The notes: a model not told the origin generated them from the sequence alone. A stretch of DNA of 36,109 nt from an uncultured virus (IMG/VR IMGVR_UViG_3300031659_000001) (IMGVR_UViG_3300031659_000001), one strand, 5' to 3'; shown: positions 3,083 through 35,442, counted from the first letter of the stretch. Made by a program: numbers and translations.

Positions 3083-3083
3083 T

Positions 3084-8111: not shown

Positions 8112-8112
8112 C

Positions 8113-11100: not shown

Positions 11101-14100
11101 AGAGCGTCACTCGGTCTTCAAGCCTCCGATTGGAAATACACATCAACCCATTTTGAAGATAGTTCACGGTGGTTACTTGTCAAATCCACAGCCGGTAAGA
11201 AAACCACAGATATGGAAACATACGGTGGTGTTGGTTTATTGAATTATAATGATGTAGATAGTGGCAACCCTGCCACCTTAGTAGATGCTAATGGTAAGGT
11301 GTATGGGACAATTACAAGCGCACTGGATGAACGAGCAGTGACCTTTCAAGGAACAACCTACACCTATTCACGACTCAAATTAGCCTCTTTGGTTGCCGAT
11401 ATACCCGAAGGCACAATTCTCCATAGGGTTGAACCCACTCTTACTCTTGTAGCAAATATCACTCAAACACTCCGTCACGGTCAAATGCTGTTCAAGGGTA
11501 AAGGGCTGAATAAGTGGCAAATTGCGCTGGAAAACGGCCATGTTATCAATTCAAGGTTCCCTAAATTGAAAAACGCTTATGCCGACCAACACGAAGAAAT
11601 AACAAGTTTGACGAACGCCGATACCACATTAAACACTGCCCAAAATGTGGTGTTGAATAAAGCCGTTATCAAGAACGGTTTGAAAAGTGAAGTAAGCACC
11701 ATTACAGCCTCCACCGCCGCTAATATCGGTTCTCAAGGATATGTGCATAGGCCATTCCGAACAATTAGATCGGTCAATAGCGAGCGTGTTAAGGGTTTAG
11801 CAATCCCGAATGAAGCAAGAGTTTGGGAAAACATACCAGTGACCGATGATACAGGTGCGGAATTGATACTTGAAGGGGGTTCACCGTTTGGAACTGTCAT
11901 CAAGGACTACGATTACAAGCAAAATCGCATTGACCCTAAAACAAACACCGCTTCTTCTCTTCCATCCACGCCCGGTAGTGGAATTGAGCCGAACTTGGAA
12001 ATCCAAATGCCATCGCAGGATGAAATACCGGGCAACATTCTCGTCCGTAGTGGACACGACCGTGTGCAAGCATGGAAACACCTTTCGTGGGGCATGGGTG
12101 GTTTAAGTCCTCCAAGACCCGACGAACCGGGTGTGATCGAGGCCAACACCGACCCCTACGACACCAACGCAGGAGAAGCCACACAGTTCGACACAAACGA
12201 CCGAGTGTTGCATTTCCACCCTGTGCGTATTTTGCACGACACGCTGACTTCTCAATTCGGTCTATCACTGAACAATACTCCCGGTGCCGTTGCCAGTGGT
12301 TCGACACGATTGTTTGCGGCCCACCGCCTCTCCGACCACGCTGAACGAGGTTCGGTATTGCCGGAAACACAGAACGGTGCTGTCCAAAGCACCAATATAC
12401 ATGCACACCACAGAATACGGTTTGGCCGTCAAGGTCATCACTTTGTATCACCCTCCACGATCCGTGGAACACCACAGTCCCTACGGCGTCAATTGCACCG
12501 TTCTCACGGCTCGGCTTATTCACTAATGTTTGAAGCGGAGAGCGAAAACAAGCACTTTGGTTTCCAATCGGCCCACGGAGATAATGACTCAAATACCTTC
12601 TTTTTGGACACTTTAGAAGTCAAATCGAGTAGTAACAACACTGGTTCTTTCAGTGCCGACGGGTTGCCTCACGCTGAAATCGAAAACAACGCCCTGCCGA
12701 ACCACGAACGGTTCTATGGTTCAGCACCAAATGACGGCTATGACATGCTTTTCGCACCCGGACAGGAACATACCTTGACCGAGGGTGCCAAAGAACAGGT
12801 GCATTTCGTTTCGGGTGTTCAAGGTATAGAGGTTTCTAATTTCGGGGGATATGGTAACGCTGGTAGTAGTGCCGCAGTAGCCTTAGAATTGGCTTCAACA
12901 CGAACCGTGGGCCACCGGCATAATGCGGGTGAAGAGTTCGCTATAAACGGGTTCTTCCTCAATCAATACTTGCTCATGGGTGGTCGCCCACTACCCTCTT
13001 TACGCACATTACAACATGAGCGAAGTGGTGTAGATCCTCACGCTTATACATACAACGGACACCCTGCTGGGTGGCATCAGCCCCGTGTTGGGACAGAACT
13101 GGCTACTGTGCCACCATTGTTCGCCCACGACCCCGATATGGTGAACGCATCGGCTACTCCGGTTGCTATTATTGAATCACCAACAGCAACAGCACACTTT
13201 ACCCAAGTGTCGGCCCATAATGACCTTGCTTTGGTTAAGGCCAGCGACACGAACTCCGGTGCTACACCCGACGCATTCCTTTGCACATGGCTGGCGGAAT
13301 ATAGCCACCCTGCACTATTTGGCACAAGCCGTGAGCATTACATGACATTCCGCTATCGTTCAGCAGGTATGCCAAAAGCGGTTGATAACCCAGCAGTTCG
13401 TGGTCTAATGCTAAGAAACGCCACCCAATCCGGTGCCCAAACCACAGGGACTCCGAAGAAGGCTATGGCATTTGAACGACTTTATGCGTTCCAATGGTTG
13501 CAGAACTTCGGCTACAACGGATTGAATGCTGGCGGTCACGGTGCGAACTGGGGAACAAGAGCCGCCAGTTCCGTGCTGATGGGTCACACTACACTTCGAG
13601 AACCGCATGGGACACTGGAATTAAGGCCGAACTTCTTGATGCGAGGCTATGGACGGCGTTATAGTCGTGGTGAAGGTATCGGTGATGGGCTTAATCCATA
13701 CAAATTAGTTTCACGAACAATACTCGACAAAGACGCTGACGATAATGGGGTATGGAACGAGATTACTACGGTGATGAACCCCATGGTGGCTGTTGATTGG
13801 AGCCGTCGCTTGCCTGTGCGAGCATGGGGATTCCGAACAGGTAGTGATGCTCTCAATATGTTGGCGGGCGATCCTGCTGAAACACTCACCACGCAACAGA
13901 AGATACAAGCCTCCGGTCGTTTCGACGGTGGAGTGCATGACACCATGAACACCCTGCCGGTTGGAAGCGATTGGCAGACCCTATCAGCCTACACAGGTGT
14001 GGAAAGAAGTGTTCCTATTGGTTTTGTTGTAAGTGAGCATACAAACGAAGGCCATGATTTAGAAGGCTTTTCACGCCTGTCAAACGAAGCATGGACAAAA

Positions 14101-17100
14101 GGCGAAACACCAGCCGGTATGGGTCGTGTGCTGGATTTGGAGGACATTGGACTCGTTAAAGCAAATGCTTTACCAGCAGGTATGGTTGATTCGCACCGAA
14201 CCGAGTTCGCCACTATAACAGGCACAGCCGCTAAGTTCCTAAAGTCTAAACCATTGAACAAAGGTTCAGATCCTATTATTGGTTTGAATCACCATTCCGG
14301 TGATGCTACTTTAGCCGCAGGTTCGGTTGAAGCAGTGACTCAATCCACCGCATTTGGTGGCGGAACTACATTCATACATCATAAAGGAAATAACCTTCAT
14401 CTCAACGCACACCCAGTCGATCACAAAGTGAGCAGTGGCGACCAAACCCATTTCCCAGCACACGGATGGGGACGCTCATTGGACATGAAGAACAAGAATA
14501 CAGCCGACCGAGGTGTCATGCCTATTCCTCTATCCGAAATAGCCGACCACCGACAGGTGCAATCCGACCTTTCACCTCGATTGGGTATGGTTATTGAAAC
14601 CGAAAGCGAGCGAACTACTGGAAAGAACGAAGACTATATCGTAACCAGCACCAAGGCAGTTTCACTACACAGCGATTTAGCCATTGGACAACAGTTCCCA
14701 TTGACCCCTTCTTGGGTATCGCAAACCAAGTGGACAAAGTTCGCCGGAGGCGCAACGACAGCCGCCACAGGGCCGGATGCTACTTACGGCGGCCCTCTCT
14801 CCCCTAACCAAAAATGGCAAATGCCTCAATGGTCTTTGGATAGAGAGACAAACCACGGTGCCCCTGCTAATTCCGATACCATCACTATGTTCGATGGTAA
14901 GGGTGTCTTAGACCACTGGGCTGTTCGTGGTTGCGGTGACTTACCGCCTTGGGGCGGAGTATATATTGTCCGTAAGACTTGGCTTGAGCGACCCGAAAAC
15001 AACAACAACAACCGGGCCATAATGCCATATGACGCCTCCGACTCTTTACACAGTCAAAGCCCAGTCCCAGTATCGGCAGTGGAACAACCCGTGCGTAAAA
15101 CAGCCGACTACATCATGCGTATGGTGCGACCTCTCAAGGCGTTTGGTTTCACTACCCGTAAAGACTGGGATGACACAGACCAATTCACACAGGATGGATG
15201 GTTGTTGGGTGCTTACTCAACGGTTACATCGTCGGGCCATGGGCACCAGCCTTTCACCCGTGACAAACGATACGGTATGTTTGAAATGAACCAATCTAAG
15301 ATGCCCGGAACGATTGAACCAATTGGTTCTCGAAGCGATACTGCGCCTACAATGGAATGGCCGGATGCCAACGAGCGTGATGTTACATGGCACTTGATAC
15401 CAAGCGCAAACATGCTTCAACACTTCAAGTCGGATGCTTCAAGACGAGATGGTGAGGGTAGATTGGTTCCATCTGTAGATCCACGCTATTCCCAAAGCAC
15501 CCATCCGGGTGGCAAAGGGGTTGTTTCGCAAACCCAAACAAGTTTCACCGCTACTACAACAGCGATATTAGACCCTTACAACAGGCGTGGTGCAGATCAA
15601 GATGTTGTCAAAGCACAGGCTGACTTGGCGATGACTACACTTGGGCCGAAGCAATTGATTTCTATTGATGGGGGAACATACATCACAGTGGCCGATGCAA
15701 CAGTATTCCCTGCAACGGGAACATTGGTGATTATTGGTTTGACAGGACAATTAACCTACAACGCAAGAACCGAAAGCAGACTTACTATTTCAGCCAGCAC
15801 AGGTGAGTGTTCGAGTATCGCTGACCTTGCAGGGAGAAACATTTACTTTGGTAAGAATGGTGCCACTGTCGCCGCTACGGTAGCGAACATCTACCCTTCT
15901 AAGCACTCTCTTGTTGTCTTGCCTTCATTGGTGGACAATGCTGTCTCCGTCGGCCTTTCATTATCCGATAAATGGGATGCTACGGACAGTGGTGATACCA
16001 AGACATTCTCCCCTAATATGGGCTATCGAGGCATTGGGCACTACGACCCATCGGATTTCCGAATGCTGACTCCCCAGCGTTTCGTGCTAAACGACGGAGC
16101 AAAGGAAGGTGTCATTTCATATGTCAAGAGGCCGGGAACAGGTGGGTTGAACAAAATATATGTCGATGGAAGGGAACTTTCTAAGGCAAACCACCCTCCT
16201 TATTTGCTCGATTCTATCAATAAGAAGTGGCGCATCGCTGGTGCTGATGTCATCTCCGGTGAAGGCAATTGGCAAGAGAACCTATTGAAGTTCCGAAACA
16301 TCAACGGCGAGTCCCTTAGTGGCGGCGGTATGTCTTTGGGTGGCACTGTTCGATTAGGGCACTACATGGCAGTTGGTGTGAGATCCACCGACGCCTCTTT
16401 GATGTTGCTTGACGACATCGGCCAGTCAATACCGGGTGCTGACCTCCTGCCGTATGAAACAGCAAATGAGCCGACAATGGTTGATGACGCAATCTACTCT
16501 TACCCATCAGCGTCAAACATAGGATATTACCTACAAGCCAATAACAAGGTTTCGCAATCCGCTATGGTTAATGCCCACCCCTCCCTTTCATCGACCATTG
16601 AACATAGTAGTGTTTTCGTGAGCAGGGACGCAAGAGGTATTGGAGTTCTCGATACAATGCGTGGGTTTTCGCAAATGGATGGACGACAAATGCTGATGGA
16701 TGATACAGGAAGAATCATCTATTCGGGTGAGGTCTTCCTTGGCCGAGAACAACGCATTGGTTCATCCAGTGGCCCTCAAATGGTAGAGGTTTCTTCTATG
16801 TTGGAGATGGCAAACCATGTAATTGTCGAAGGTGATAGGATAGCCGAAAACGAAACAATCCGAGCCGAGGTCAAAGACCTTGAAAAAGCCAAGTTAATGG
16901 GCGGAAAGGGCAACGAAGAGGGTGTCCTTCGCACTTTACTTCAACAGGTTCCGGGTGTGAAGGAAAGGGCACTGGCTTTGAAAATGGCGAAACAATTTAT
17001 GAATCGAACCGAGCAAGGTTCCGCTATGATTAGGGTTACTGGACTCGTTAAAGCAAGTCATTTACAACCGGGTGAAATCATCGGAGTGGACTTTGTTAAT

Positions 17101-17697
17101 GAAGGCATCAAGGGCCAATATGCTGTGTTTGAAGTCACCAACCACAGCACTGGTGGCACGACTGATATAGTAATTGGACAGTATGAGAAGGGTATTGAGG
17201 GGCTTCTTGCCGACATGCTCACATCAACAGCCAGCAACAGCGAAGAAGACCCAACACGCCTAAAGGATCGTATTGAAATGTCCTTAAGTGGGTCAGTTCG
17301 TTTGGTCGCCGCCAGCCGTGTGAGAACACGGATTGTCAATAATACCCGTTTCATCATTGGTGGTCGCTGGCGAGGCTCACCTACAAACAGCCAATTGGGT
17401 TCTATTGGAGTGCAAGGTGGTGCTACTGGTGTTATCAAGAACGGTGCAATCAACGCCAATGCTACAACCGCTATCGCCGTCGATGGTGTGGATGCAACCC
17501 TCCGCTTCGGCGCAAACGACCTACTCTATACACTGGCTGGTTTGTATGTTGGGCGTGTTCAATCCGTCACCGCTACCGGCATTACGCTGACAGCAAATAA
17601 CATCGTTGCCATAGCCGACAACCTCCAATTAAGGGTAAAGTCAAAGAGGGCCGACCCAGTGGGTCATTCTAAGTCCGTGTTCTACGAGGTGAGATAA
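8113..17697 (+). CDS. Giant tail/baseplate protein (3194 aa) with repeated beta modules and a C-terminal baseplate-hub-like domain
   Basis: Start moved to the ATG at 8113, 1 nt after the upstream TAA. Gly/Thr/Ser/Asn-rich. About 8 copies of a 'GD.I....G..(I/V)G.(I/V)' module. Hub-like C-terminal motifs ANHVIVEG and LQPGEIIGVDF...GQYAVFEV. Confidence 0.75.
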   Translation: MADVLTFAKQEYPAARRPIGSDDGIPASGYFSLHFTYPDTAYEDPTVMTFAKAGTNQLGINYMIRTPLAGDSTNAAADGEDARNGTNTIVIDLKRAAVAHAAAISAGAVMPAKTFDLGTEEATRLIAATINSTRNRQIGAHSKSRYLRARYVKMSGSKQYGGWGTETGGGHLKQGFLNGQDIGGGSSSYLRVNQSVSPAGYAAGSTHEIRVDGTGATNAPGNYLTPGENIYTVANDFVGKILEIDGRTIRFYEPIACALLDNDKLRGGWLRLFKFGSARERDIIGADSTTANGFNFNNMPTDIPKRGTIVGNPNSTLNDASNQDVGTYTLTYDGWQIVSDTSIQFNITKAETTAAGGVKDITDSTTTDADQPTWFVQNDTTEQHTVVVSWEIDAPTGGGYWGTANGGPIVQGLGASLPVWYMTAKPMDGGNLGLPATNAESRGAVPATHTTGHGYSRFSIEGLNSCSLPDMPPPDKPFDGPSITGSTEADPFQWTGLNTALNAHQEDELLITKGEFGTRMDDAGPFETNCMISTNANITGGKIIKTLTPATNISAHFDDGDSIFSADGTAIGTIAANGISGLTSTELSVIGPKTVDSGVTISTAFGSTVNGVPPRGGSRVYSTGSTYPWYHGSGGLSTIMTGGAAPDSFFNLGDEVMNASNGLIGTVPKARLVRRFAPGQHNDGCLINTGDSNPISSAANLDIINIQVDQIDPNLIYHVGEKIYSQDTFYNTGVSIQQGQNAAEEATPMLMTIPSFGGGIDPASAGQNGARIQAGDHIFLLVSNVMTLVGVAESAMDGEIALTGNNLIAVAPNDVLYVYGYIGTIKTIQETQHTISVSGYAARSFGTGVSVVDFSANNSSDFRGKIIAGSTIKAGSNLIGVVSSVGERQITFVANIATAVTTTTQMTVIGNTTWNIELEAKLDYGNSRSYVNDITNAGDQYLVLSNNSSIMGESLTNKSMTFADSTGLLPGVTSEQLALEERLYTPGVNWNQGVNNRASLGLQASDWKYTSTHFEDSSRWLLVKSTAGKKTTDMETYGGVGLLNYNDVDSGNPATLVDANGKVYGTITSALDERAVTFQGTTYTYSRLKLASLVADIPEGTILHRVEPTLTLVANITQTLRHGQMLFKGKGLNKWQIALENGHVINSRFPKLKNAYADQHEEITSLTNADTTLNTAQNVVLNKAVIKNGLKSEVSTITASTAANIGSQGYVHRPFRTIRSVNSERVKGLAIPNEARVWENIPVTDDTGAELILEGGSPFGTVIKDYDYKQNRIDPKTNTASSLPSTPGSGIEPNLEIQMPSQDEIPGNILVRSGHDRVQAWKHLSWGMGGLSPPRPDEPGVIEANTDPYDTNAGEATQFDTNDRVLHFHPVRILHDTLTSQFGLSLNNTPGAVASGSTRLFAAHRLSDHAERGSVLPETQNGAVQSTNIHAHHRIRFGRQGHHFVSPSTIRGTPQSLRRQLHRSHGSAYSLMFEAESENKHFGFQSAHGDNDSNTFFLDTLEVKSSSNNTGSFSADGLPHAEIENNALPNHERFYGSAPNDGYDMLFAPGQEHTLTEGAKEQVHFVSGVQGIEVSNFGGYGNAGSSAAVALELASTRTVGHRHNAGEEFAINGFFLNQYLLMGGRPLPSLRTLQHERSGVDPHAYTYNGHPAGWHQPRVGTELATVPPLFAHDPDMVNASATPVAIIESPTATAHFTQVSAHNDLALVKASDTNSGATPDAFLCTWLAEYSHPALFGTSREHYMTFRYRSAGMPKAVDNPAVRGLMLRNATQSGAQTTGTPKKAMAFERLYAFQWLQNFGYNGLNAGGHGANWGTRAASSVLMGHTTLREPHGTLELRPNFLMRGYGRRYSRGEGIGDGLNPYKLVSRTILDKDADDNGVWNEITTVMNPMVAVDWSRRLPVRAWGFRTGSDALNMLAGDPAETLTTQQKIQASGRFDGGVHDTMNTLPVGSDWQTLSAYTGVERSVPIGFVVSEHTNEGHDLEGFSRLSNEAWTKGETPAGMGRVLDLEDIGLVKANALPAGMVDSHRTEFATITGTAAKFLKSKPLNKGSDPIIGLNHHSGDATLAAGSVEAVTQSTAFGGGTTFIHHKGNNLHLNAHPVDHKVSSGDQTHFPAHGWGRSLDMKNKNTADRGVMPIPLSEIADHRQVQSDLSPRLGMVIETESERTTGKNEDYIVTSTKAVSLHSDLAIGQQFPLTPSWVSQTKWTKFAGGATTAATGPDATYGGPLSPNQKWQMPQWSLDRETNHGAPANSDTITMFDGKGVLDHWAVRGCGDLPPWGGVYIVRKTWLERPENNNNNRAIMPYDASDSLHSQSPVPVSAVEQPVRKTADYIMRMVRPLKAFGFTTRKDWDDTDQFTQDGWLLGAYSTVTSSGHGHQPFTRDKRYGMFEMNQSKMPGTIEPIGSRSDTAPTMEWPDANERDVTWHLIPSANMLQHFKSDASRRDGEGRLVPSVDPRYSQSTHPGGKGVVSQTQTSFTATTTAILDPYNRRGADQDVVKAQADLAMTTLGPKQLISIDGGTYITVADATVFPATGTLVIIGLTGQLTYNARTESRLTISASTGECSSIADLAGRNIYFGKNGATVAATVANIYPSKHSLVVLPSLVDNAVSVGLSLSDKWDATDSGDTKTFSPNMGYRGIGHYDPSDFRMLTPQRFVLNDGAKEGVISYVKRPGTGGLNKIYVDGRELSKANHPPYLLDSINKKWRIAGADVISGEGNWQENLLKFRNINGESLSGGGMSLGGTVRLGHYMAVGVRSTDASLMLLDDIGQSIPGADLLPYETANEPTMVDDAIYSYPSASNIGYYLQANNKVSQSAMVNAHPSLSSTIEHSSVFVSRDARGIGVLDTMRGFSQMDGRQMLMDDTGRIIYSGEVFLGREQRIGSSSGPQMVEVSSMLEMANHVIVEGDRIAENETIRAEVKDLEKAKLMGGKGNEEGVLRTLLQQVPGVKERALALKMAKQFMNRTEQGSAMIRVTGLVKASHLQPGEIIGVDFVNEGIKGQYAVFEVTNHSTGGTTDIVIGQYEKGIEGLLADMLTSTASNSEEDPTRLKDRIEMSLSGSVRLVAASRVRTRIVNNTRFIIGGRWRGSPTNSQLGSIGVQGGATGVIKNGAINANATTAIAVDGVDATLRFGANDLLYTLAGLYVGRVQSVTATGITLTANNIVAIADNLQLRVKSKRADPVGHSKSVFYEVR

Positions 17698-19671: not shown

Positions 19672-21012
19672 ATGAGGGACAATGCCTTCGACCAAGCGTG
19701 GACGATCATGAAGGGTATTGTTTTTGATGGTAAGCACTATGAAGACATTGATGAATTAGACCCTCAAATCCTCGAAATACTAAGGCTTTTCAACGAGAAT
19801 AATAAAGAAAACCCATTACCACAACCCCCGTTCCAAGCAAAAGGGCGTGAAGGAAAACCATTCAAGGCTATGAGAGATGCCCGTTTAGACGGTATCGATC
19901 ACCAACCTATTTTTGATTCTATGAGAGGGTTCACAGATCCGGAAAACAGTATGCTTTCTACCTTTATGAATTGGGAGGGAGGCAAAACAAGTGAGATGCC
20001 AAAGTTCCGCAACATGGCCTCACAATTGGGTTCACGGGGTCGCCCTGTCGAACCAATGACAGGCAGTGGGTCTTTCGTGCTGGGTATGAATAGGGGCAGT
20101 GGCTTGATGAACGACATGAACCCCGATATTGTAAATGTCCACCGTCAAGCAAAGGCTGGTCTTGGTGATGTTGCTATTCCTCAATCGCAAGAAGCACATA
20201 ACGCCGCTATGGATGCCATGAATACTATTCGTGAAAGACGAGATGTGGATGGAGAGGAATTGTCAGATCAAGACCTTCGTGAACTCGCCCAGCATTTCGT
20301 GGGCAACAACCTATCCTCCTTCCGCACAGACTGGCGAGGTGCCGACTGGGATGGTCGCACCGAAACCAACGCAAAGGGCAAACAAGTCCCTATCGGCGGC
20401 TTCGATGCAGATTACGCCACAGCCTATACAGAAGGTCGCTACCCACACCAAAAATGGCGTGACAATAATGCAGAAGTCAATAGATTACATGCGTTAAGAG
20501 AAGCGCAGGGTTCGACAGCAGGGTTCACGAATGCTGAAAAGAAAAAGGTAGGGAACTGGCGTGCATTCCCACATCATGCTGGTTCGCTTAACCTCGATGC
20601 TTACGCTTCCCGCTACAAAGGAGTGGACATACGAGAAGGTGATGCCTTTGACCTCAACGATCAATTACGACCGGATGATTTGTTGTATTTAGATCCTCCA
20701 TATATTGGCCGTGATATGGATTATGGGGCAACAACCCTACAACAACAAGGAAGAACCTATGACGACTTCCAAAGAAAAATACTACAAATGGGTAGAGAGC
20801 ATGAAGGGCCATCTATCCTTTCAAATTACATGTATGCAAAAGATAAGCACCAGCCCTTAGATAGATACATCAAGGATGCTATGGATTCGGGCTACACGCT
20901 CTACCCTTGGCTACGCAAACCAAAAGCCAACAAGTTCCCCCAAGTAGAAATGTTTGGATTGAAAGGATTGAAAAATCCTCTCCCTTCTTCGGCACAAAGG
21001 ACTCTCTTCTAA
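19672..21012 (+). CDS. dam: DNA adenine methyltransferase, Dam/D12 family, with an N-terminal extension
   Basis: Motif X FMNWEGGK, motif I VEPMTGSGS, NDMN, motif IV LYLDPPY, SILSN. Dam-like hairpin TNAKGKQVPIG. Target specificity is not established. Confidence 0.8.
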   Translation: MRDNAFDQAWTIMKGIVFDGKHYEDIDELDPQILEILRLFNENNKENPLPQPPFQAKGREGKPFKAMRDARLDGIDHQPIFDSMRGFTDPENSMLSTFMNWEGGKTSEMPKFRNMASQLGSRGRPVEPMTGSGSFVLGMNRGSGLMNDMNPDIVNVHRQAKAGLGDVAIPQSQEAHNAAMDAMNTIRERRDVDGEELSDQDLRELAQHFVGNNLSSFRTDWRGADWDGRTETNAKGKQVPIGGFDADYATAYTEGRYPHQKWRDNNAEVNRLHALREAQGSTAGFTNAEKKKVGNWRAFPHHAGSLNLDAYASRYKGVDIREGDAFDLNDQLRPDDLLYLDPPYIGRDMDYGATTLQQQGRTYDDFQRKILQMGREHEGPSILSNYMYAKDKHQPLDRYIKDAMDSGYTLYPWLRKPKANKFPQVEMFGLKGLKNPLPSSAQRTLF

Positions 21013-21776: not shown

Positions 21777-23315
21777 TTAGCCACCCCATGAGAAGGAAAC
21801 ATAATTCCTACCGCCCTTTCCTTGCTTGACGATTTCCACCGAACCGCCCTTTGTCAAGGCATTGAAGCGTCGTTGGGCTGTGATGTCAGCCACCGATTGC
21901 TGGGCGGCATATACCTTGAGTAGTTCGGATTGCATAACACGCTCAATACCGTCCTTCTCGCTGGTATATCGCTTGCACATGGTCTGTGCCTTAGACCACG
22001 AAGCACGCTCGGCTGTGACCTTTTTCTTATCCTTGACAGATTCCTTCTGTTCAAGCCAAATGGTGAGGTTATGGAGATTGTCGAAAATGATTTCGCTTGC
22101 CATCATCACATGATCCTCGGTGATTTCTGTTTCCTGCATGAGAACAGCGATTAGGTTTGAGAAAATCATAGTGTAGTTCTCAATGTTGGGTAGGAACGAC
22201 AGGGCTGTTTCACGCACCGCTTCACTGGCTATGTTGTTCACCAGCCCGTAGTAGTCATCAACGGCGTTAAGGATGGCAGGATGATACCCTGCTGATACCG
22301 TGAAAATGTCGTGTGCGTGGCGCATAGCGGCTTGTTCCCTCTCCCCTTCGGGAATACGGTTCCACACTTCGTCACGCTCTATACGGCGTTCCTCTATCTC
22401 CCCTTCGGCGTTACGGATTTCAACGGTTTCCCATGTAATGCCCATAGCGTCAAAGAGTCGGTTCTTCATCACATCGACACAGCCTGTTATGTATTCAGCG
22501 AGAATGTCGTAATCCATGATATTTTCATTTGTTTGCACATACGCCCCTGCAACACGGTGTTCGCTGGTGGTTTGGCGTTGTTCCGCCGTAATGTCGTTTT
22601 GGAATAAGAATACACGCTGGAAGAAACCCTTGTCTAAGACATGCGCCATGATGTCTTTAGGAGGATAGGTAGTCATCCATAGGGAAACACCCGATGGAGT
22701 CCTTACATCGCCTCCTACAAGGTGCTTAACGAGGACATTGGTTCGTGAGCCGAGTGGTGCCATCGCTTGTTGGAGGTATAGGATTTTGTCGGAGAAGTGT
22801 GACTTTGAGTCATTGAGTAGTATTGACGCCTCGTCAAAGAGAAGCGTCTTGTAGCCGTTTAGAAGGCCGGGAACGGTTATGTGGTTGGTTTCACCCGTTG
22901 GACGCCCGTTGTCGTCCATTACAGGCTCGGACAGGACTGTTCCGATGAGTTTAGCATCCGAACCAGCAGTGAAGGTGTCGCTCTCGACATTACATGCCTC
23001 AAGCAAGCGGTCGGTGAACTCCCATGCGATTGACTTTCCAGTCCTTGATTGTTGGATCCAGTATGTGTGAACCCGACAGTCGATGTAAGTGCCGTGAATA
23101 GGTATTCGCATGAACGGGGCACATAACTGACCCATGACGAAAAAGAACGACAACAGACCAGCATATTCATTGAAGAAAGAAACGGTATTGAACCGTTCAA
23201 TATAACCACGAATGAATTGTGAACCTTCATGGTCGCTATTCACGACCATATAGTCGTCCCACTGCCTTTGTTGCGCCATTAAGTTGTTCATGTCGCTGTT
23301 TATTGATACTGTCAT
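21777..23315 (-). CDS. AAA+ P-loop helicase (divergent MCM/YfjI-like) with a probable C-terminal winged helix; candidate replicative helicase
   Basis: Walker A QSRTGKS, Walker B LLFDEAS, arginine-finger-like GFFQRVF. Sits in the replication block. Confidence 0.7.
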   Translation of the reverse strand: MTVSINSDMNNLMAQQRQWDDYMVVNSDHEGSQFIRGYIERFNTVSFFNEYAGLLSFFFVMGQLCAPFMRIPIHGTYIDCRVHTYWIQQSRTGKSIAWEFTDRLLEACNVESDTFTAGSDAKLIGTVLSEPVMDDNGRPTGETNHITVPGLLNGYKTLLFDEASILLNDSKSHFSDKILYLQQAMAPLGSRTNVLVKHLVGGDVRTPSGVSLWMTTYPPKDIMAHVLDKGFFQRVFLFQNDITAEQRQTTSEHRVAGAYVQTNENIMDYDILAEYITGCVDVMKNRLFDAMGITWETVEIRNAEGEIEERRIERDEVWNRIPEGEREQAAMRHAHDIFTVSAGYHPAILNAVDDYYGLVNNIASEAVRETALSFLPNIENYTMIFSNLIAVLMQETEITEDHVMMASEIIFDNLHNLTIWLEQKESVKDKKKVTAERASWSKAQTMCKRYTSEKDGIERVMQSELLKVYAAQQSVADITAQRRFNALTKGGSVEIVKQGKGGRNYVSFSWGG

Positions 23316-26014: not shown

Positions 26015-26956
26015 TCACTCCAAATGTGTTTGATAGCGTGGACAGAACTCTTTGACAGCGCACCACGGGTCGCATATCGAGTATTGGCGGAAGGGAGGGA
26101 TAAGAGGAAACATACTGATTTCCCCATCACCCTTGTATTTCTTGTGCATACGGACGAGGTTTTGCATATCAACCATCATCAAGCCCAGTTCTTTGACACG
26201 AACTGCCTCCACTAAGCGGAACATTTCAGCGTTTTCTGTGTCGGTGTCCTTCACCCCTTTCGTGTGATCCCAACCCCAGTGGGTAATTGGTGTCAAAGGC
26301 TCGGCCTTTCGCAACAACCACACATAGAATGCCATTTCCTTACGCATAGCCTCGTATTTGTATGGGGACTCTTTCCAAGCCCCTGTCTTGAGTTCGTGTA
26401 TGTGAAGAGAGCCGTCGGGGTTGCTATATATTCGGTCAATGAACCCAACAAAGTGGATGCGCTGTGCCACACCATCAACGGTTATTTCGACAACAGTGTC
26501 CACCTCCTTTTCATTACCAGTCGGCAAGAAATTGTCGGGTTGGCTGTTGTTGAATCGCTCTACCTCCTTCACACGGTAGCGGTCAATATGCAAGTCTTCA
26601 TCCAAATAGAAAGAATCCTGCCCCGAACGGATTTCCGATGAAGAAGGGAAACATTCACGGAAATAGCCATCTAGATCCTCCGATTCAGTAGCCTTCTCGA
26701 TGTCCACCCTTTGATAGAAGCCTTCAACGGCGTCGTGGACATTGGTTCCTCGTAGCATGTTGTCGTTCTGTGGCTCCTTCATGCCTATAATCCGCTTGAT
26801 TGCGTATTGTTGAGAGCAAAAGGTAGATTCTCCCAGTGACGATTTAGTCATACGGAGAATGATATTGTCGGGCATACCGGGGTGCCAATCGTAGCAAGAG
26901 AACAAATCCTCATGGTTTGCCACAGGGTATGGGCGAGGTGCTTTATGGGTTATCAT
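26015..26956 (-). CDS. Cas4/AddB-like PD-(D/E)XK nuclease with Fe-S cysteines (stand-alone)
   Basis: KSSL...FC, RGTNVH, GFIDRI, IHELKTG, EMAFY, CDPWC...FCP. Start moved to 26956 (TAATG coupling, AAGGAG RBS). Confidence 0.85.
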   Translation of the reverse strand: MITHKAPRPYPVANHEDLFSCYDWHPGMPDNIILRMTKSSLGESTFCSQQYAIKRIIGMKEPQNDNMLRGTNVHDAVEGFYQRVDIEKATESEDLDGYFRECFPSSSEIRSGQDSFYLDEDLHIDRYRVKEVERFNNSQPDNFLPTGNEKEVDTVVEITVDGVAQRIHFVGFIDRIYSNPDGSLHIHELKTGAWKESPYKYEAMRKEMAFYVWLLRKAEPLTPITHWGWDHTKGVKDTDTENAEMFRLVEAVRVKELGLMMVDMQNLVRMHKKYKGDGEISMFPLIPPFRQYSICDPWCAVKEFCPRYQTHLE

Positions 26957-27915
26957 TACCATAACTCCTTTGGTTTTGGTTCTTCTTCGGCCTTCACCCA
27001 TTGAAAGGTTTCAAGGACTTTTTCATTTCCGGGGTCGTTAATTTCACAGGACATAGCGTCGTCGGCATGTAGTTCGCCTTCTTCGCCCCACATCTCAATG
27101 ATGCCTTGTTGGTCGTCGTGATAGATACTCACAGCGTCACAGGAATTGCATTCAAACGGCCTTCGGCCCTTTGGAACAAAGCCGCCTTTGAACTTCTCTT
27201 CCATTTCAGCAAGACTGTCGTATTGATTGAAACCATGAACTGGATTTGAAACACGGCGACTCTCTTCATCCCATTCCTTTGCTTGCGCCCATAGATCCGG
27301 GTATTTTTTCCACAGGATATGCCACGAACCGACAGGTTGCTTGGGACAGTGAAAACAGCCCAAACGCTGGAAATTGACATAGAGAGGGTTCACCATCTCA
27401 AGGGCGTCAAGATATTTGAAAGCGTCTTCTTCTGTCCAGCCCCATTCGATAAGGGGATAGCGTATGCCATCCTCCTTTGCGGTCTTCGACACACGGCGTT
27501 TCTCATCAATGGCGATACCAACATACTTGATGTTGCATTCCTTTGTAGCCCTTTGGAGGGGGTATAATTTTGCTTCTCTTGCCCAGTAGCAAGGATAGAC
27601 AATTAGAGGTGCCCCTCGCACATTACCCTCGTTCTTTCCTCTCGTCACCTTTCCATAGAACCAATCGTTCCATGACTTCTTTGAGAACACATGCTCGATA
27701 TGTAGCCCTCTTTCGGGGTATTTCTCTTGAATGTATTTCTCCACATGCTTGATGTATTCGTAAAGTTCGGGGAACTCAAAACCAGTGTCAGCGAACACGA
27801 TGCGATGCACCGGATAGTTCACTGGATCGTCCATCTCAAGCATTTTCAACAGCATGGCTGTTGAGTCTTTTCCGCCACTAAATGATACCATCGCTATGTC
27901 TTCTTTTTCTTCCAT
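26956..27915 (-). CDS. PAPS-reductase-family (CysH/DndC/SspD-like) PP-loop protein
   Basis: VSFSGGKDS, FADTGFEFPE, RYPL, RLGCFHCP, plus an extra CNSC in the C-terminal extension. Confidence 0.85.
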   Translation of the reverse strand: MEEKEDIAMVSFSGGKDSTAMLLKMLEMDDPVNYPVHRIVFADTGFEFPELYEYIKHVEKYIQEKYPERGLHIEHVFSKKSWNDWFYGKVTRGKNEGNVRGAPLIVYPCYWAREAKLYPLQRATKECNIKYVGIAIDEKRRVSKTAKEDGIRYPLIEWGWTEEDAFKYLDALEMVNPLYVNFQRLGCFHCPKQPVGSWHILWKKYPDLWAQAKEWDEESRRVSNPVHGFNQYDSLAEMEEKFKGGFVPKGRRPFECNSCDAVSIYHDDQQGIIEMWGEEGELHADDAMSCEINDPGNEKVLETFQWVKAEEEPKPKELW

Positions 27916-27918
27916 ATT

Positions 27919-30213
27919 TTACCACCACTCTTGGGGGGTTGCCCCGTCGGCTGTCAGTTCTCGCCAGCCCATAGCCTCGAAAATGAGACTGACCGGAGCG
28001 ATTATCTGTTTCTGTATAACCGTTGTGTAATCAATGTCAAGGGCTTCGAGTTCTTCATCTGTTCGGAACGCCTCGATCCCTCTTGTAGTATAGACATGGG
28101 GGACACCATCACCCTTCTCAAAGCGGTTGTCGGGGTTGCGGCGGTTGTAGTCTTTAGCGGCTCCTTGAAACCCACCTTGTTGTCCATATGATTCGGCCTT
28201 CTTACCGAGCCTAGATCTCATAACAAGAGACTCTCGCTTCACTAAAGTTCGCACAGCCCTTATCCAATTATTCATCATGTCCCTTATGTCTTCCTCCGTG
28301 GCATTTTCACGACATAGTGATTCAAAGGCTGTTTCTTGAATGTGTTTAGTGAGCCATGCGGCATTTGACTTCTTCATCTCAAAGCCAGTGCAGTGGAGTG
28401 CTTCTCTCGGCCAAGTGACCCAGCCAAAGTTTCTGTTCTTTTTGGCGGCAACCCATGACGACATCAGTTTCTCATATTCAACGACGAAACGCTCGGAGTC
28501 GAACTCCTTCTGTATCTTTCGTGTCAAAGCGTCGGCAATCTCTTCACCGTCGTCATCGCCAATTCCTATGTATGCACTGTCGGTGTGTCCTGCGAGTGGC
28601 TCGTAGCCCATCTCTTCGCACACATCCATGAGTCGTGAAACCAATGAACGCCCGACATAGGTGATAGTGGCGGCAACGGTTCTGTGTGCTTCACCATGAC
28701 CTGTGTGTCCCATGAGGCCATAGACCGATGCGGCGGCTCTCTTGAATGCTAATTGTAGTGTGTTGAAGCCAGCATGTTCCGAAGTTCCTGCTTCGTGCTT
28801 CTTCATCTCGGCCTTAGCGGCGTTGCGAGCATCAGCAAGATCCATCTGCAATTGTGGCAATACCCCTATGCTCTCTTGACTCCAAAATGTCCCGTTGCCA
28901 ACAGCACGGATATTCTCTCCCGCTTCGTGACGAAGCATTTCGGGACTGATATTGTCAGCACGCTGGATTTCAGCATACATGGCACGGTAATCGAAGACGG
29001 CTACATTGTTATGGCGGCCAGTCTTTGGCTCGGCCACGAAACCACCACCGTATGAATCTCCTTTTCCTTTGTTGTATAATCCTGTTGGCGAAGCCCACGA
29101 AGCCCTACGGCGTAGTAAGCCCCTTGCGAACCGACTTACGGTGAACACGGAACCAAATGAAACCCCACACACACGCTGTAAAGCCATGAAGAATCGGGTG
29201 ACATGGTATTCCCTGTCGAGTCGATCAGTGAGTATAACATCGGCTCTATGGTATTTCAAGAAGTCATCGAAGTGATTCAACCATAGATCGTGGTGAGTAA
29301 TCCCATTAGTGTCTATTTTCCACAGTTCGGGACTATCGGGGAATGCTACCTTTCCAACAGCACCAAGTCGGCGGTCGGACAATTGGCCGTTGCCACTGTC
29401 TCTCCACACACGCTCAAAGCCGTGGTTCCTGTCTGCCAAATCAACAGTCATTCGACCCGGTATTACTTGAGAACCATCCTCATAAACCCCACTTCGTGGG
29501 AGGTGGGTCATTGGCGGCGAACTGCTGACATCACTAAGAGGCGACATCCAATCGAAGCCAATGTAGTGGTGCTTGTAGCGTTCATACATTTTCGGCCAGT
29601 CGGCACGGTTGCCCGACCATGTAGTAATGAGGTCGGGATCCAGCGTTTTGAACGCATCGGCAAATGACAATAGCATCTCCCTCTCGGAACGAAATGCACC
29701 TAATCCTTCATGTGTCGGGTGCCAAGACCACTGTCGAACTACCTCACCGTCTGTGGTGAAGCCCATAGCGGTGAGTTCACCCTCTTCATTCCATTCAAGG
29801 TCAAAGCCACCAGCCCGAACCATGTTCGGAAACCAGTCGGGCATGTCCTTTGGATTGATATTGTCAATAGCAAAGCGGTCGGGAAAGTGAATGTCAGCCT
29901 CCCATGTTTCGTCGCAAAGGTCACGCATACCTTTCACAGAACTGGGTGATGGAGCAACAATAGAAAGTAGTTCACGGCCTTCGGGTAATTCCTCGGTCGG
30001 GAGAGATATACTGGTCTTCTCACCAGCATACCATCCACGGAAGCGTTCATCGAACATTTCCGTAATTCGTGACATGTCACTGTCGGCGGCGACATAGAAG
30101 TAAGGTCGGTAATCCGACACATAGTTCTCCATCACATTCCCGTCTTCATCACGGTAGCGAAGGTAGATCGATGGACATTCCTGTTCGTCTGTTTCGTAAG
30201 TGGCAATAATCAT
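27919..30213 (-). CDS. polB: Family B DNA polymerase with a proofreading domain
   Basis: ExoI FDLE, ExoII WSGNRADW, ExoIII YHRAD, YGGG. Polymerase motifs A FDYRAMY, B KRAAASVYG, C AGHTDS, then KKNR and GFEMKK. Confidence 0.92.
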   Translation of the reverse strand: MIIATYETDEQECPSIYLRYRDEDGNVMENYVSDYRPYFYVAADSDMSRITEMFDERFRGWYAGEKTSISLPTEELPEGRELLSIVAPSPSSVKGMRDLCDETWEADIHFPDRFAIDNINPKDMPDWFPNMVRAGGFDLEWNEEGELTAMGFTTDGEVVRQWSWHPTHEGLGAFRSEREMLLSFADAFKTLDPDLITTWSGNRADWPKMYERYKHHYIGFDWMSPLSDVSSSPPMTHLPRSGVYEDGSQVIPGRMTVDLADRNHGFERVWRDSGNGQLSDRRLGAVGKVAFPDSPELWKIDTNGITHHDLWLNHFDDFLKYHRADVILTDRLDREYHVTRFFMALQRVCGVSFGSVFTVSRFARGLLRRRASWASPTGLYNKGKGDSYGGGFVAEPKTGRHNNVAVFDYRAMYAEIQRADNISPEMLRHEAGENIRAVGNGTFWSQESIGVLPQLQMDLADARNAAKAEMKKHEAGTSEHAGFNTLQLAFKRAAASVYGLMGHTGHGEAHRTVAATITYVGRSLVSRLMDVCEEMGYEPLAGHTDSAYIGIGDDDGEEIADALTRKIQKEFDSERFVVEYEKLMSSWVAAKKNRNFGWVTWPREALHCTGFEMKKSNAAWLTKHIQETAFESLCRENATEEDIRDMMNNWIRAVRTLVKRESLVMRSRLGKKAESYGQQGGFQGAAKDYNRRNPDNRFEKGDGVPHVYTTRGIEAFRTDEELEALDIDYTTVIQKQIIAPVSLIFEAMGWRELTADGATPQEWW

Positions 30214-31007
30214 TGAGAACCCTCGGCTTCTTCTTGCCGGGGTGCAATAACTGTGTGCGTTCCAAAATCACCATCGGGTGATTCGTGGCGTATTAGCAGG
30301 GGGCTGTCGTTGCCTCCGTGCAAGTGGATTGTCCCATTTCCCGGCATAGCCTTGAGAGCATCCATAAGCCACTTTCCAAACCAATTTAGAGTAATGTCGT
30401 CTTCATCAGCGACACTGCTCTCTTGGGGTTCAAGTGTAGATTCCATGCGTATTTGATCACGCTTGACACTTAGTGTCAAACCAGCGACATTCGCTTCAAG
30501 GCAATAGAGCGCACCGCTTTGGATGGCCTTACCTGTATTGCGTAATTGCTGGAACTCCGATGAATCGAAGGCCATATGAAAACCAAAATTAGCCGAACCA
30601 AAAGCCATCCAATCGGATGCTTCACTTTCCTCAATCATGGCTACAACAGCCGAAACACCAGCCTGTGATGAAGCAGTGTTCACTGTTGGCATAGAGAACT
30701 TTGCATTAGAACCAATGACTTGGATCATGTTATCCTCACTTACCTGTAATTCCACTTCTTCGTTTCCTGCACCGCATTCGCTGATGAGGGATGTAAAGGT
30801 CTTCAATTGTCCCAGTGGTATTTCGCCTTCTACGAGGCATTCTTCGCCCTCACGGTAGTTTGTCCACCGTGTGATGAAGTAAGCCTTCTCAAGCGTTCCT
30901 GCCGCAACAAGACCCTCTTCCGTGACAGTGACGACTAAATCGTCCATGCCGTCGAAAGCCTTGAGGAAACCGAGCAGGTTGTGTTGAAGCATACGGAACC
31001 CACTCAA
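30210..31007 (-). CDS. pcna: PCNA-like sliding clamp
   Basis: 265 aa, acidic. C-terminal WLMDALK...SPLLIR...VIAPR matches the PCNA end. Adjacent to polB. TTG start overlaps the upstream stop. Confidence 0.75.
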   Translation of the reverse strand: MSGFRMLQHNLLGFLKAFDGMDDLVVTVTEEGLVAAGTLEKAYFITRWTNYREGEECLVEGEIPLGQLKTFTSLISECGAGNEEVELQVSEDNMIQVIGSNAKFSMPTVNTASSQAGVSAVVAMIEESEASDWMAFGSANFGFHMAFDSSEFQQLRNTGKAIQSGALYCLEANVAGLTLSVKRDQIRMESTLEPQESSVADEDDITLNWFGKWLMDALKAMPGNGTIHLHGGNDSPLLIRHESPDGDFGTHTVIAPRQEEAEGSQ

Positions 31008-31306
31008 GAGTAATCCCTCCTTGAAGGGTTTAGTTCACTTGAATACTGTTGGGTCAATTGGTTCACCATCATTTCCTTTTGCATAGTAATATGATTCAAT
31101 GCGTCTTCAACAGGGATCATGATAGCGTCGGGTAATTCGTCGCAAAGGATAGTAATAACCGTGTGTTCGCTCACGGAGAAAATACCTTCGTCGTTCTTGA
31201 CTACCCAAAAGGATGAGAACGGGCCAGTGGCAATAACCCACTCGCCTGTCACCGTCTTGGTTTCCTTACCACCTATGGTATAGTTAATCGTCATTTGCAC
31301 CATCAT
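31004..31306 (-). CDS. Hypothetical protein
   Basis: 100 aa, coupled at both ends, GGAGG RBS. Confidence 0.65.
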   Translation of the reverse strand: MMVQMTINYTIGGKETKTVTGEWVIATGPFSSFWVVKNDEGIFSVSEHTVITILCDELPDAIMIPVEDALNHITMQKEMMVNQLTQQYSSELNPSRRDYS

Positions 31307-33856: not shown

Positions 33857-34873
33857 TCACCCTCTTTGTTCATAATCCCCAATCATAGCATGGAGGAATA
33901 GGAGATCGCTCGCTGTCCAGTCGGGGCTTCTTGCCGCCCACTGTCCGAGGATCATGAGATGCTTACATGCAACCAAGTAAGTTATCTCATTGTCTTTGTA
34001 ATTTTGAAGGATGGCTTCATGCAATCCTTCTATGCACTCGTCACGGTTTATGCCGAGAGTATTGATGAGTTCGGAGGCAACGGTAATTGTCGCCTCGGTA
34101 GTAAGCATATCCGTATAAAGTGCGAAAATAGGCGACATATCAACGGCTATGAGACGAAGTAGTGCGTCGGGGTCTTCGGGATTGCATGTTTGCATAGCCT
34201 TCAAACAAGCACGCATATCGCCTTTGTATTTTGCGACGAACTGCTGGACATTCTCACTCCACTGTGTAGGAAATCCTTCTTCCTCTATTATACGGACAAT
34301 GAAACCAACGGCGTCATCATCCCCAAGAGGGCTGAATGAGTATGCTGGTAGTCTTGAACGGAGAGCAGGTATAATGCGACCAATACGGTTGCATGTGAGA
34401 ATCCAAAGGACATGTGAACCAGTCTGTTCGATCAATTGGCGCATGGCGTCTTGAGCGTCCTTGGTGAGTCCGTCGGCTTCATCCAGCACTATCACTTTGA
34501 AATCGTGGCCTACTGCCTTCTGTTCAGCCAAAGGCTTGAGGCGGGTTCTTACGAACTGTATGCCTCTCTCGTCGGAGGCGTTGAACTCATGGAAATTGTT
34601 ATCGAAACCAGATCCGAGCATATCCTTAGCAATAGCCCTTGCTCCACTGGTCTTACCAGTGCCCGGTTTCCCATAGAATATGACTCCCCCACACCTTAAT
34701 TGATGCTTGTTCTGTGAATGGACTACCCATGAAGGCACATCGTCCTTCAATTGCTCAAGCCCAACCATTCCTTGTAGGGTGTCGGGGCGGTGGGTCATCC
34801 ATAATTGAGTCATCATTACACTTCCGTGGGATTCATGCCAATAGGGGGTTGGGTATATAGGTTGGGGTGTCAT
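33857..34873 (-). CDS. rfcS: Replication factor C small subunit (clamp loader ATPase)
   Basis: W..HRP, YGKPGTGKTS, EFNASDERGI, IVLDEAD, LRSR, GDMR. Start moved to 34873 (ATGA coupling). Confidence 0.92.
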   Translation of the reverse strand: MTPQPIYPTPYWHESHGSVMMTQLWMTHRPDTLQGMVGLEQLKDDVPSWVVHSQNKHQLRCGGVIFYGKPGTGKTSGARAIAKDMLGSGFDNNFHEFNASDERGIQFVRTRLKPLAEQKAVGHDFKVIVLDEADGLTKDAQDAMRQLIEQTGSHVLWILTCNRIGRIIPALRSRLPAYSFSPLGDDDAVGFIVRIIEEEGFPTQWSENVQQFVAKYKGDMRACLKAMQTCNPEDPDALLRLIAVDMSPIFALYTDMLTTEATITVASELINTLGINRDECIEGLHEAILQNYKDNEITYLVACKHLMILGQWAARSPDWTASDLLFLHAMIGDYEQRG

Positions 34874-35442
34874 CGACTCGACCCCCAATCTTCAATGGAC
34901 AGGCTCTTAGTAGCCTGTTTAGGGGTCGGTTTTAGTAGCGTTGCTTTATCATGGATGATGAAATCCCAATCGCTGTCTAAAAGGTGTGGTAAGACCGCCC
35001 GAACATTCTCTTCACGGGCTACAATTCTCTCAAACCAATTCTGTTCACTTGGTCGCAATCCGAACACAGCAAGTAGGCGGTTCGGCACAGGCTTTGGGGC
35101 TTTGTTTGGAAAGGTAATGCGACGGCGACCGGAACCATCCTTTGAAAGTGCCAGCAGGGAATACATAATACCAAAACTCTCCTTCTGTAATAGTTCACGG
35201 GCGGCAAACATCACGGTTGGATCGTTGGGGCATGTGGCATTCATAACATCAAGCATGAATGCGTGGTGTGTGGAGGCGGTTTCCAAAGCATCTCTTACAT
35301 GGAGGCGGTCGTAGTCGTTCAACCACTTTCGCATGGCATCAAACAGTGATACCTTCTTCTCATCGAAAATAATATCCTCGGCGTTTGGGCATACATCGAA
35401 CCAGTCGTTCGTGTCAAGTGCCTCGTCTTCAAACAGATTCAT
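34870..35442 (-). CDS. Hypothetical helical protein, candidate non-ATPase second clamp-loader subunit
   Basis: 190 aa, coupled to rfcS, no Walker motifs. C-terminal QATKSLSIEDW is PIP-like. Confidence 0.5.
   Translation of the reverse strand: MNLFEDEALDTNDWFDVCPNAEDIIFDEKKVSLFDAMRKWLNDYDRLHVRDALETASTHHAFMLDVMNATCPNDPTVMFAARELLQKESFGIMYSLLALSKDGSGRRRITFPNKAPKPVPNRLLAVFGLRPSEQNWFERIVAREENVRAVLPHLLDSDWDFIIHDKATLLKPTPKQATKSLSIEDWGSSR

Follow-up and report, generated by a model that had tools for sequence, protein, structure and literature searches.

A PAPS-reductase-like enzyme in the replication operon of an archaeal-type virus shares a C-terminal tail with the viral polymerase and DNA methyltransferases and may be tethered to the sliding clamp

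We analyzed a stretch of 36,109 nucleotides from an uncultured virus (IMG/VR IMGVR_UViG_3300031659_000001), here called the window, and within it a gene annotated as a 'PAPS reductase' (3'-phosphoadenosine 5'-phosphosulfate reductase) that lies between the genes for a family B DNA polymerase (PolB) and a Cas4-like nuclease. On the reading that we favor, with a probability of roughly 55%, its product would be an SspD/DndC-like enzyme that is tethered to a viral sliding clamp of the PCNA fold and acts on nascent viral DNA. Two results carry this reading. Judged by profiles and motifs, the enzyme is without the defining features of CysH and has SspD as its closest match, and the statement that it is not a metabolic cysH is well supported. 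It also ends in a short peptide that recurs at the ends of PolB and of three DNA methyltransferase families, and the interpretation of this tail as a shared docking peptide is likewise well supported by the sequence comparisons given below.

The clamp, PolB, enzyme and nuclease genes form an operon-like packed run. The clamp gene overlaps that of PolB by 4 nucleotides, 3 bases separate the PolB stop from the ATG of the enzyme, and the TAA of the enzyme shares bases with the ATG of the Cas4-like gene (TAATG), which is a probable start and gives 313 residues, as in relatives. Of 1977 candidates in a search for homologues of the enzyme, 1578 clusters passed E <= 1e-5; we analyzed the best 120, which with the window's own protein make up the 121 rows to which the counts below refer. 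The features of the run and of the enzyme are as follows.

30210..31007, minus strand: sliding clamp (PCNA fold), 265 residues, from its AlphaFold2 model and Foldseek matches.
27919..30213, minus strand: PolB, 764 residues (PF00136, E 5e-28; PF03104, E 2e-7).
27922..27936, minus strand: PolB C-terminal tail P-Q-E-W-W; the protein ends ...TADGATPQEWW*.
26956..27915, minus strand: PP-loop enzyme annotated 'PAPS reductase', SspD/DndC-like, 319 residues (PF01507, E 6e-15; phrog_424, E 6e-39).
27862..27879, minus strand: PP-loop S13-G-G-K-D-S18 of the enzyme, the ATP pyrophosphatase signature, intact.
27589..27591, minus strand: Cys109, conserved in 121/121.
27346..27357, minus strand: C187-x-x-C190, both cysteines in 121/121.
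27139..27150, minus strand: second cysteine pair C256-x-x-C259, each in 119/121.
27037..27117, minus strand: disordered acidic linker, residues 267-293, with model confidence (pLDDT) <50; it holds Cys290 (27046-27048, in MSCEIND).
26995..27006, minus strand: F-x-W-[VI] element, F304-V307; W306 is invariant in alignment A4, and the element is predicted to be a strand that folds back.
26959..26973, minus strand: enzyme C-terminal tail P315-K-E-L-W319; the protein ends ...EEEPKPKELW*.
26015..26956, minus strand: Cas4-like PD-(D/E)XK nuclease, 313 residues (PF12705, E 2e-16); no tail, 0/8 orthologue ends.

The enzyme has the PAPS-reductase / adenine-nucleotide alpha-hydrolase fold, which PF01507 recognizes and which an AlphaFold2 model with a pLDDT of 85 reproduces. 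It might accordingly be a CysH that serves as an auxiliary metabolic enzyme and raises sulfate assimilation in the host. Papers on magroviruses, haloarchaeal (Haloquadratum) viruses and Asgard viruses present the gene in this way in their available text, as a sulfur auxiliary metabolic gene (PMC10160649, PMC12418951, 10.1101/2021.07.29.453957), and the closest solved folds are indeed reductases of PAPS or of adenosine 5'-phosphosulfate (APS) (VIA 7rge, Z 12.0, and 2goy, Z 11.8; Foldseek 2oq2, E 2e-8). However, the CysH, PAPS_reductase and APS_reductase models give the protein 23.5, 22.7, 21.7 and 15.9 bits, far under their curated cut-offs of 154, 254, 165 and 235. Its PP-loop is intact, and the pattern SGG.DS is kept in 115 of the 121 aligned homologues; at the same position CysH (6vpu) has SSFGIQA and the ATP-using QueC (3bl5) has FSGGQDST. 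The catalytic cysteine of CysH lies C-terminally in an ECG[LI]H motif, and a motif of the form ECG[LIVM]H is present in 0/121 aligned homologues, the window protein included. In addition, Pfam scans of the window's larger open reading frames (ORFs) found no sulfate-assimilation families next to this gene, which sits inside a replication operon. We consider a metabolic CysH very unlikely. The fold searches do not themselves separate reductases from other PP-loop enzymes; they listed no DndC or SspD structures, and this is not evidence of a difference.

Among PADLOC profiles, the best match is SspD (E 2e-21; residues 9-240 of the protein against 3-221 of a 277-position profile that has no curated cut-off), followed by BrxP (1e-8) and, weakly, DndC (E 3.5e-4). 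We ran PADLOC over 82 ORFs of at least 90 residues, taken from the window and the other ~50 kb of its nearest record, G001 (61% complete), apart from two giant ORFs. Within these ~86 kb the enzyme alone matched (SspD, BrxP), and no SspA, SspB, SspC, DndA, DndB, DndD or DndE was found. An earlier note on this DNA had argued that the enzyme is no metabolic cysH and that the window holds neither sulfate-assimilation genes nor other dnd or ssp genes, and both statements agree with these results. Searches of phage and plasmid proteins and of a protein atlas returned generic names only ('PAPS reductase family'), two bacterial gene neighborhoods were uninformative, and a locus search with P0034 gave no match. 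A locus search with a profile of alignment A1, run over 6 of the 64 parts of the collection, was dominated by members of the general family.

It is important to consider that the substrate might not be DNA. The enzyme could thiolate or aminate tRNA or a free nucleotide, as TtuA, NcsA, ThiI, TilS and QueC do, and the tail would then either place it in the replication compartment or serve an unrelated role. In favor of this idea, its other structural neighbors include tRNA-thiolating and lysidine-forming PP-loop enzymes and the [4Fe-4S] enzyme LarE (Z 8.7-10.5), we recognized no DNA-binding domain in the protein, and the 82 ORFs hold no Ssp or Dnd partner. However, its best profile is SspD and not a tRNA enzyme (TtcA, E 0.002), the tail is common to a DNA polymerase and DNA methylases, and in one homologue (P0149, 683 residues, 36% identity) the enzyme domain is joined in a single protein to that of a C5 cytosine DNA methylase (PF01507 + PF00145). 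We regard a substrate other than DNA as unlikely.

The cysteines give a hint of the chemistry. C109, C187 and C190 are a candidate three-cysteine [4Fe-4S] site, to which the pair C256/C259 can be added. DndC is described, in the available text, as a PP-loop ATPase with a three-cysteine 4Fe-4S center plus a cysteine dyad (PMC10853773), and several structural neighbors of the enzyme are [4Fe-4S] PP-loop sulfur transferases (8cnz, 6scy). Because the cysteine pattern is DndC-like and the neighbors include such transferases, the comparison suggests that the enzyme catalyzes an ATP-driven, Fe-S-dependent sulfur transfer. A weak match to chain C of PDB 21fy, named 'PptA', covers the C-x-x-C region (E 1.4e-3 with alignment A1, 0.065 with A2); no paper relevant to it came up in the literature searched. 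Cys290 in the linker could be a mobile, sulfur-carrying arm. All 10 of the 10 members of the window's own clade have a linker cysteine, and so do homologues whose tails are acidic, where it reads A-C-[DE]-I or similar; a clade with the sequence W-I-P-P-S has none. Beyond the linker, the AlphaFold2 model is ordered again at residues 298-311 (block pLDDT 82), and the last three residues fall below 50.

PolB and the enzyme both end in P-x-E-[WL]-W, at the extreme C-terminus, as a reading of both ORF ends confirms. This likeness was the starting point of the earlier note, which had also placed a flexible linker before each tail; the model of the enzyme bears this out for residues 267-293 of that protein. 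Among PolB orthologues, the last dipeptide is hydrophobic or aromatic in 9 of 11 distinct ends, and in 10 of 11 such a dipeptide lies no more than four residues from the end.

The note had further named conservation of the motif in homologues as a check, and in the enzyme the motif is conserved among the closest relatives and not in the family as a whole. Within the window's ten-member clade, identity is 0.75 over the last five residues, 0.71 in the core and 0.55 in the linker; across the 27 tailed homologues the values are 0.37 for the tail, 0.56 for the core and 0.29 for the linker. Homologues with as little as 44-50% identity retain the tail, even though their linkers have diverged. More distant members show W-[IV]-P-P-S-[QH]-x(3-8)-[EDGK]-W-[LWI]. 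Among the best 120 of the 1578 clusters, 24 end in a hydrophobic or aromatic dipeptide with W or F, three more carry it at most three residues from the end, and 78 are short forms (median 270 residues) that have no extension. In a maximum-likelihood tree of the 121 rows, 54 make up a long-form clade that is set apart, with an SH-aLRT support of 100%, from the other 67, which are short forms; the alignment contained the tails, and the tree is to this minor extent circular. By a loose pattern, 28 rows of the long-form clade are tailed, the window's own among them, and 14 are acidic; all 27 tailed homologues fall inside this clade. Two short forms also match the loose pattern, seemingly by accident.

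The tail is not confined to these two proteins. We clustered by BLAST the ORFs of 33 out of 34 clamp-centered loci (L087-L119), together with L008 and L009, and counted distinct C-termini. Strict [LW][WF] ends make up 29 of 281, compared with an internal frequency of this dipeptide of 0.0067, and 27 of the 29 belong to just six families: PolB, the enzyme, three DNA methyltransferase families and a 190-residue protein (p190) encoded next to the clamp loader. The counts of distinct ends with the terminal dipeptide, for families other than PolB, are as follows.

Enzyme: 4/4.
C5 cytosine methylase cluster: 4/5, and 5/5 within four residues of the end.
N6_N4 methylase cluster: 4/9, and 8/9 within four residues of the end.
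p190: 7/16; relatives end in Q-[GD]-A-L-F or [FT]-L-W.
Primase-like protein: 1/11.
Antisense ORF cluster, probably spurious: 2/3.
Clamp, RFC, Cas4-like, ERCC4, a 403-residue protein (p403), a 449-residue protein (p449) and other families: none.

By Pfam, representatives of the methylases belong to three unrelated families, PF00145 (C5), PF01555 (N4/N6) and PF02086 (D12). Their ends are of the class seen in PolB, namely Q-x-x-L-[FW], Q-x-[ST]-L-F-[ED]-W or [EG]-W-L; the D12 orthologue in L102, for example, ends in QQRLF. The tailed methylases lie at these positions.

L003: 3220-4227.
L006: 1418-2413.
L008: 12013-13290 and 13295-13984.
L098: 14943-16175.
L100: 10802-12364.
L102: 14016-15026 and 19671-20756.
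L120: 305-4559.
Window: 19672-21012, plus strand.

Moreover, the exact letters of the tail vary together within a virus.

Window lineage: PolB QEWW, enzyme KELW, UvrD-like helicase QEWI (the helicase from G001).
Close relatives: PolB QEWW, enzyme KEWW.
L120: enzyme IEWL and three methyltransferases AEWL, LGWL and REWL; the chaperonin, PD-(D/E)XK nuclease and ERCC4 protein are without a tail.
L128: PolB VEWI, enzyme LRWL.
L009: PolB MGWI, enzyme KELF, ERCC4 protein KAWV.

Unrelated proteins therefore share one ending in a given virus and differ in it between viruses, which is the pattern expected from a common binding partner. This bears on the possibility that the likeness is due to chance or to a small local duplication that has no function. 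The motif is only five residues long, and a count of the loose pattern in the window's genome is not significant. However, given the conservation of the tail next to a diverging linker, its restriction to few families and this co-variation by lineage, we find such an origin hard to credit.

The identity of the partner is less directly constrained. The clamp model has a pLDDT of 91, and 27 clusters of homologues were found. Its best Foldseek matches are archaeal and eukaryotic PCNAs (top match 1rxm_A, E 7e-15, TM 0.73/0.78), and according to their entry titles many of the matched structures are complexes of PCNA with a peptide (1rxm, 1isq, 3a2f, 3p83, 6t7y). A canonical PCNA-interacting protein (PIP) box is Q-x-x-[LIVM]-x-x-[FWY]-[FWY]. 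In the enzyme (E-P-K-P-K-E-L-W) and in PolB (G-A-T-P-Q-E-W-W), only positions 7-8 fit this consensus; some methylase tails (Q-R-T-L-F-E-W) fit it better. The earlier note was right to call the motif non-canonical: the glutamine and the aliphatic residue at position 4 are missing, and proline stands in place of the latter.

This departure from the PIP box is one reason to consider that the shared tail docks on some viral or host hub other than the viral clamp, such as the PCNA of the host, the clamp loader, a protein that binds single strands, the virus-encoded chaperonin or a packaging factor. A second is that genomes of this virus group carry a Cpn60/TCP-1 chaperonin along with many proteins that have no assigned function. 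However, the tail is carried by PolB and a neighbor of the clamp loader, both typical clients of clamps, and by enzymes that act on DNA, whereas structural proteins, the chaperonin, the clamp and the RFC-like ATPase are without it. In addition, some methylase tails (Q-R-[ST]-L-F-E-W) retain the spacing Q..L..W that is seen in archaeal PIP peptides. A partner other than the viral clamp seems to us improbable.

We therefore return to the clamp-tethered, SspD/DndC-like enzyme as our preferred explanation, and several observations must be weighed against it. The tails are not canonical PIP boxes, having no glutamine at position 1 and a proline at position 4. The nearest solved folds belong to sulfonucleotide reductases, and reductase chemistry would be compatible with the fold taken alone. 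No Ssp or Dnd partner occurs in the 82 ORFs, though known phosphorothioation systems need them, and no DNA-binding domain was recognized. Acidic tails, many with a cysteine, occur in 15 of the best 120 homologues, and the tail is thus dispensable for the family. In particular, the enzymes of L008 and L131-L133 are of the acidic-tail form, and the L008 gene is intact in a locus whose methylases still have aromatic tails. It is only in the window's own sub-clade that the enzyme gene comes after PolB; L101-L116 lack it at that place. Finally, in this genome alone the loose pattern is found in 5 of 84 ORFs for an internal frequency of 0.024, with a binomial p of 0.054. Since this single-genome count is weak, the case rests on conservation and on the families that carry the tail, and not on the pair formed by PolB and the enzyme. 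The proposal in the earlier note, a clamp-tethered modification enzyme instead of a cysH, stands in part: the enzyme is not a CysH, and its tail is conserved and shared with PolB and three methyltransferase families, but the tail is not universal.

The mechanism that we propose on this basis is as follows. The enzyme would belong to the SspD/DndC branch of the PAPS-reductase fold and use ATP through its PP-loop, and would not be a sulfonucleotide reductase; an Fe-S cluster would probably be held by C109, C187 and C190, with C256/C259 as a second cysteine pair. It would adenylate an oxygen of its substrate, which would then be replaced by sulfur or by another nucleophile. The disordered linker would present P-x-E-[WL]-W, the same tail as that of PolB and one related to the Q-x-x-L-[FW](-E-W) tails of the methylases, to a partner that would most economically be the PCNA-fold clamp encoded two genes upstream. 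Viral DNA would in this way be marked at the fork by several clamp-docked modifying enzymes. Clamp binding, a DNA substrate and sulfur chemistry are what we infer from these data, and phosphorothioation is our leading guess for the product.

A broader version of this mechanism, which we hold only tentatively, makes the viral PCNA a platform for up to three kinds of methyltransferase and the stand-alone SspD-like enzyme, each docked by a variant of the tail of the polymerase, such that nascent DNA would be both methylated and sulfur-modified (phosphorothioated or thiolated) on leaving the polymerase. One viral protein would carry out the sulfur step alone, with the help of host sulfur carriers. 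If this version is true, many 'cysH auxiliary metabolic genes' of archaeal viruses would be replication-coupled anti-defense enzymes. Viral 'PAPS reductase/cysH' genes are routinely counted as sulfur-cycling auxiliary metabolic genes, and ecological readings in terms of sulfur cycling would need revising if this branch serves replication-coupled DNA modification. In that case archaeal viruses would also be a compact setting for studying how several DNA-marking enzymes are brought to a single clamp by a short tail that can evolve. In a 2026 NAR paper, the PAPS reductases of phages are predicted to be homologous to DndC and SspD and to have a role in anti-defense. In the literature that we searched, which comprised few subscription journals and no supplements, clamp-type tails on viral PAPS-reductase-like enzymes or methylases are not described.

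The remainder of the window and its closest record are consistent with the setting assumed here. We provisionally call the source a marine, magrovirus-like, archaeal-type tailed virus. Among named PolBs, those of haloarchaeal tailed viruses come closest, with 21-24% identity, and a near-identity DNA search of phage records with the window gave no match. Pfam and PHROG scans of the ORFs show that the window's minus strand is a packed replication module. Its content is close to that of magroviruses, which are described in the available text as having a DNA polymerase, sliding clamp, RFC, primase and nucleases (PMC5434244); unlike in that description, no MCM, RadA-like ATPase or ssb was recognized in the window's module. 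In addition to the genes given above, the following features were noted.

34870..35442, minus strand: p190, adjoining the clamp loader; it ends ...SLSIEDWGSSR in the window and has no Pfam family.
33857..34888, minus strand: RFC-like clamp-loader ATPase (phrog_168, E 8e-39; AAA, E 9e-17); no tail, 0/11 orthologue ends.
Minus strand, listed between the clamp loader and the clamp: two module members whose family was not recognized.
31004-31306, minus strand: 100-residue ORF, a module member.
Minus strand: a primase-like protein and an ERCC4/HhH nuclease, further module members.
21777..23315, minus strand: 512-residue protein with no Pfam, PHROG or PADLOC match and a conserved sub-terminal F-x-W-G.
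19672..21012, plus strand: D12-class N6-adenine DNA methyltransferase (PF02086, E 2e-11); tail Q-R-T-L-F at 20995-21009.

The p190 and 512-residue proteins have in common a conserved sub-terminal [LIF]-x-x-W-G (SIEDWG and SFSWGG). On the plus strand are the giant ORFs, at 3009-8111 (1700 residues) and 8032-17697 (3221 residues), which are probably host-recognition or tail proteins; a Laminin_G_3/concanavalin-like domain is found in the former and in an 873-residue ORF at 461-3082.

G001, with 64,342 nucleotides, overlaps the window in the replication module and encodes, beyond it, a terminase, a Cpn60/TCP-1 chaperonin, a UvrD-like helicase and a ParB_N protein. Group II chaperonins of the Cpn60/TCP-1 type are found in this virus group at 1461-3038 of L124 (E 9e-166) and 4809-6329 of L120 (E 1e-51). 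L124, which is part of G001, also contains at 3035-12241 a run of about 10 paralogous genes whose products start M-[ST]-A-F-[DE]-x-A-[FW]-x-L-[LIMF]-K and whose ends are often acidic and rich in Trp; none of them could be assigned to a family. The UvrD-like SF1 helicase of G001 (951 residues, L124 14157-17012), which lies outside the window, ends ...AAQEWI, close to the QEWW of PolB. The ParB_N-domain protein (251 residues, L125 7949-8704), just past the window's right end, terminates in ...VMFANW. DndB and IbrB are ParB-like partners of PAPS-reductase-like enzymes, and the ParB_N protein might be a working partner of the enzyme studied here.

Several known systems can be compared with the one proposed. 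The viral enzyme has in common with CysH its overall fold and the motif D-T-G-x-x-F-P-E, but CysH has no ATP-type PP-loop, and the viral enzyme is without the ECGLH tail or a sulfate-pathway context. With SspD of SspABCD and DndC of DndABCDE it shares the PAPS-reductase fold, an intact SGGxDS PP-loop and conserved cysteines. It differs from them in that it stands alone, with no desulfurase, nickase, ATPase or DndD/E partner in ~86 kb, and in that it lies in a viral replication operon, carries a C-terminal tail of predicted docking function and matches DndC only weakly.

Archaeal clients of PCNA that use a PIP box (FEN-1, the RFC large subunit, PolB, RNase HII and the DP2 subunit of PolD) resemble the enzyme in having a hydrophobic or aromatic peptide at the extreme C-terminus, and the enzyme likewise has a disordered linker before that peptide and a PCNA-fold clamp in the same genome. 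However, it would be a modification enzyme and not a replication or repair factor, and its clamp docking is predicted. In phages T4 and RB69, the clamp gp45 is a hub to which the polymerase and late-transcription proteins attach by their C-terminal tails. The likeness lies in a virus-encoded clamp and several viral proteins with similar C-terminal peptides, whereas T4 and RB69 are bacterial viruses and the clients of gp45 are a polymerase and transcription factors instead of DNA-modifying enzymes.

When two genes were swapped in a vibriophage, one of them encoding a PAPS-domain-Dam fusion, the reported outcome was an anti-Dnd phenotype (10.1101/2021.05.05.442762). There, too, a viral PAPS-reductase-family domain is tied to DNA methylation and to escape from phosphorothioate-based defense. 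That virus is a bacteriophage and the link in it is a covalent fusion, whereas the enzyme studied here is a protein distinct from the methylases and has its tail in common with them. DNMT1, a maintenance methylase of eukaryotes, carries its PIP box at the N-terminus. One abstract lists DNMT1 as a partner of PCNA (PMC5264654). Although it has no relation to PP-loop enzymes, DNMT1 resembles the arrangement proposed here in that a DNA-modifying enzyme is brought to the fork by a clamp-binding peptide.

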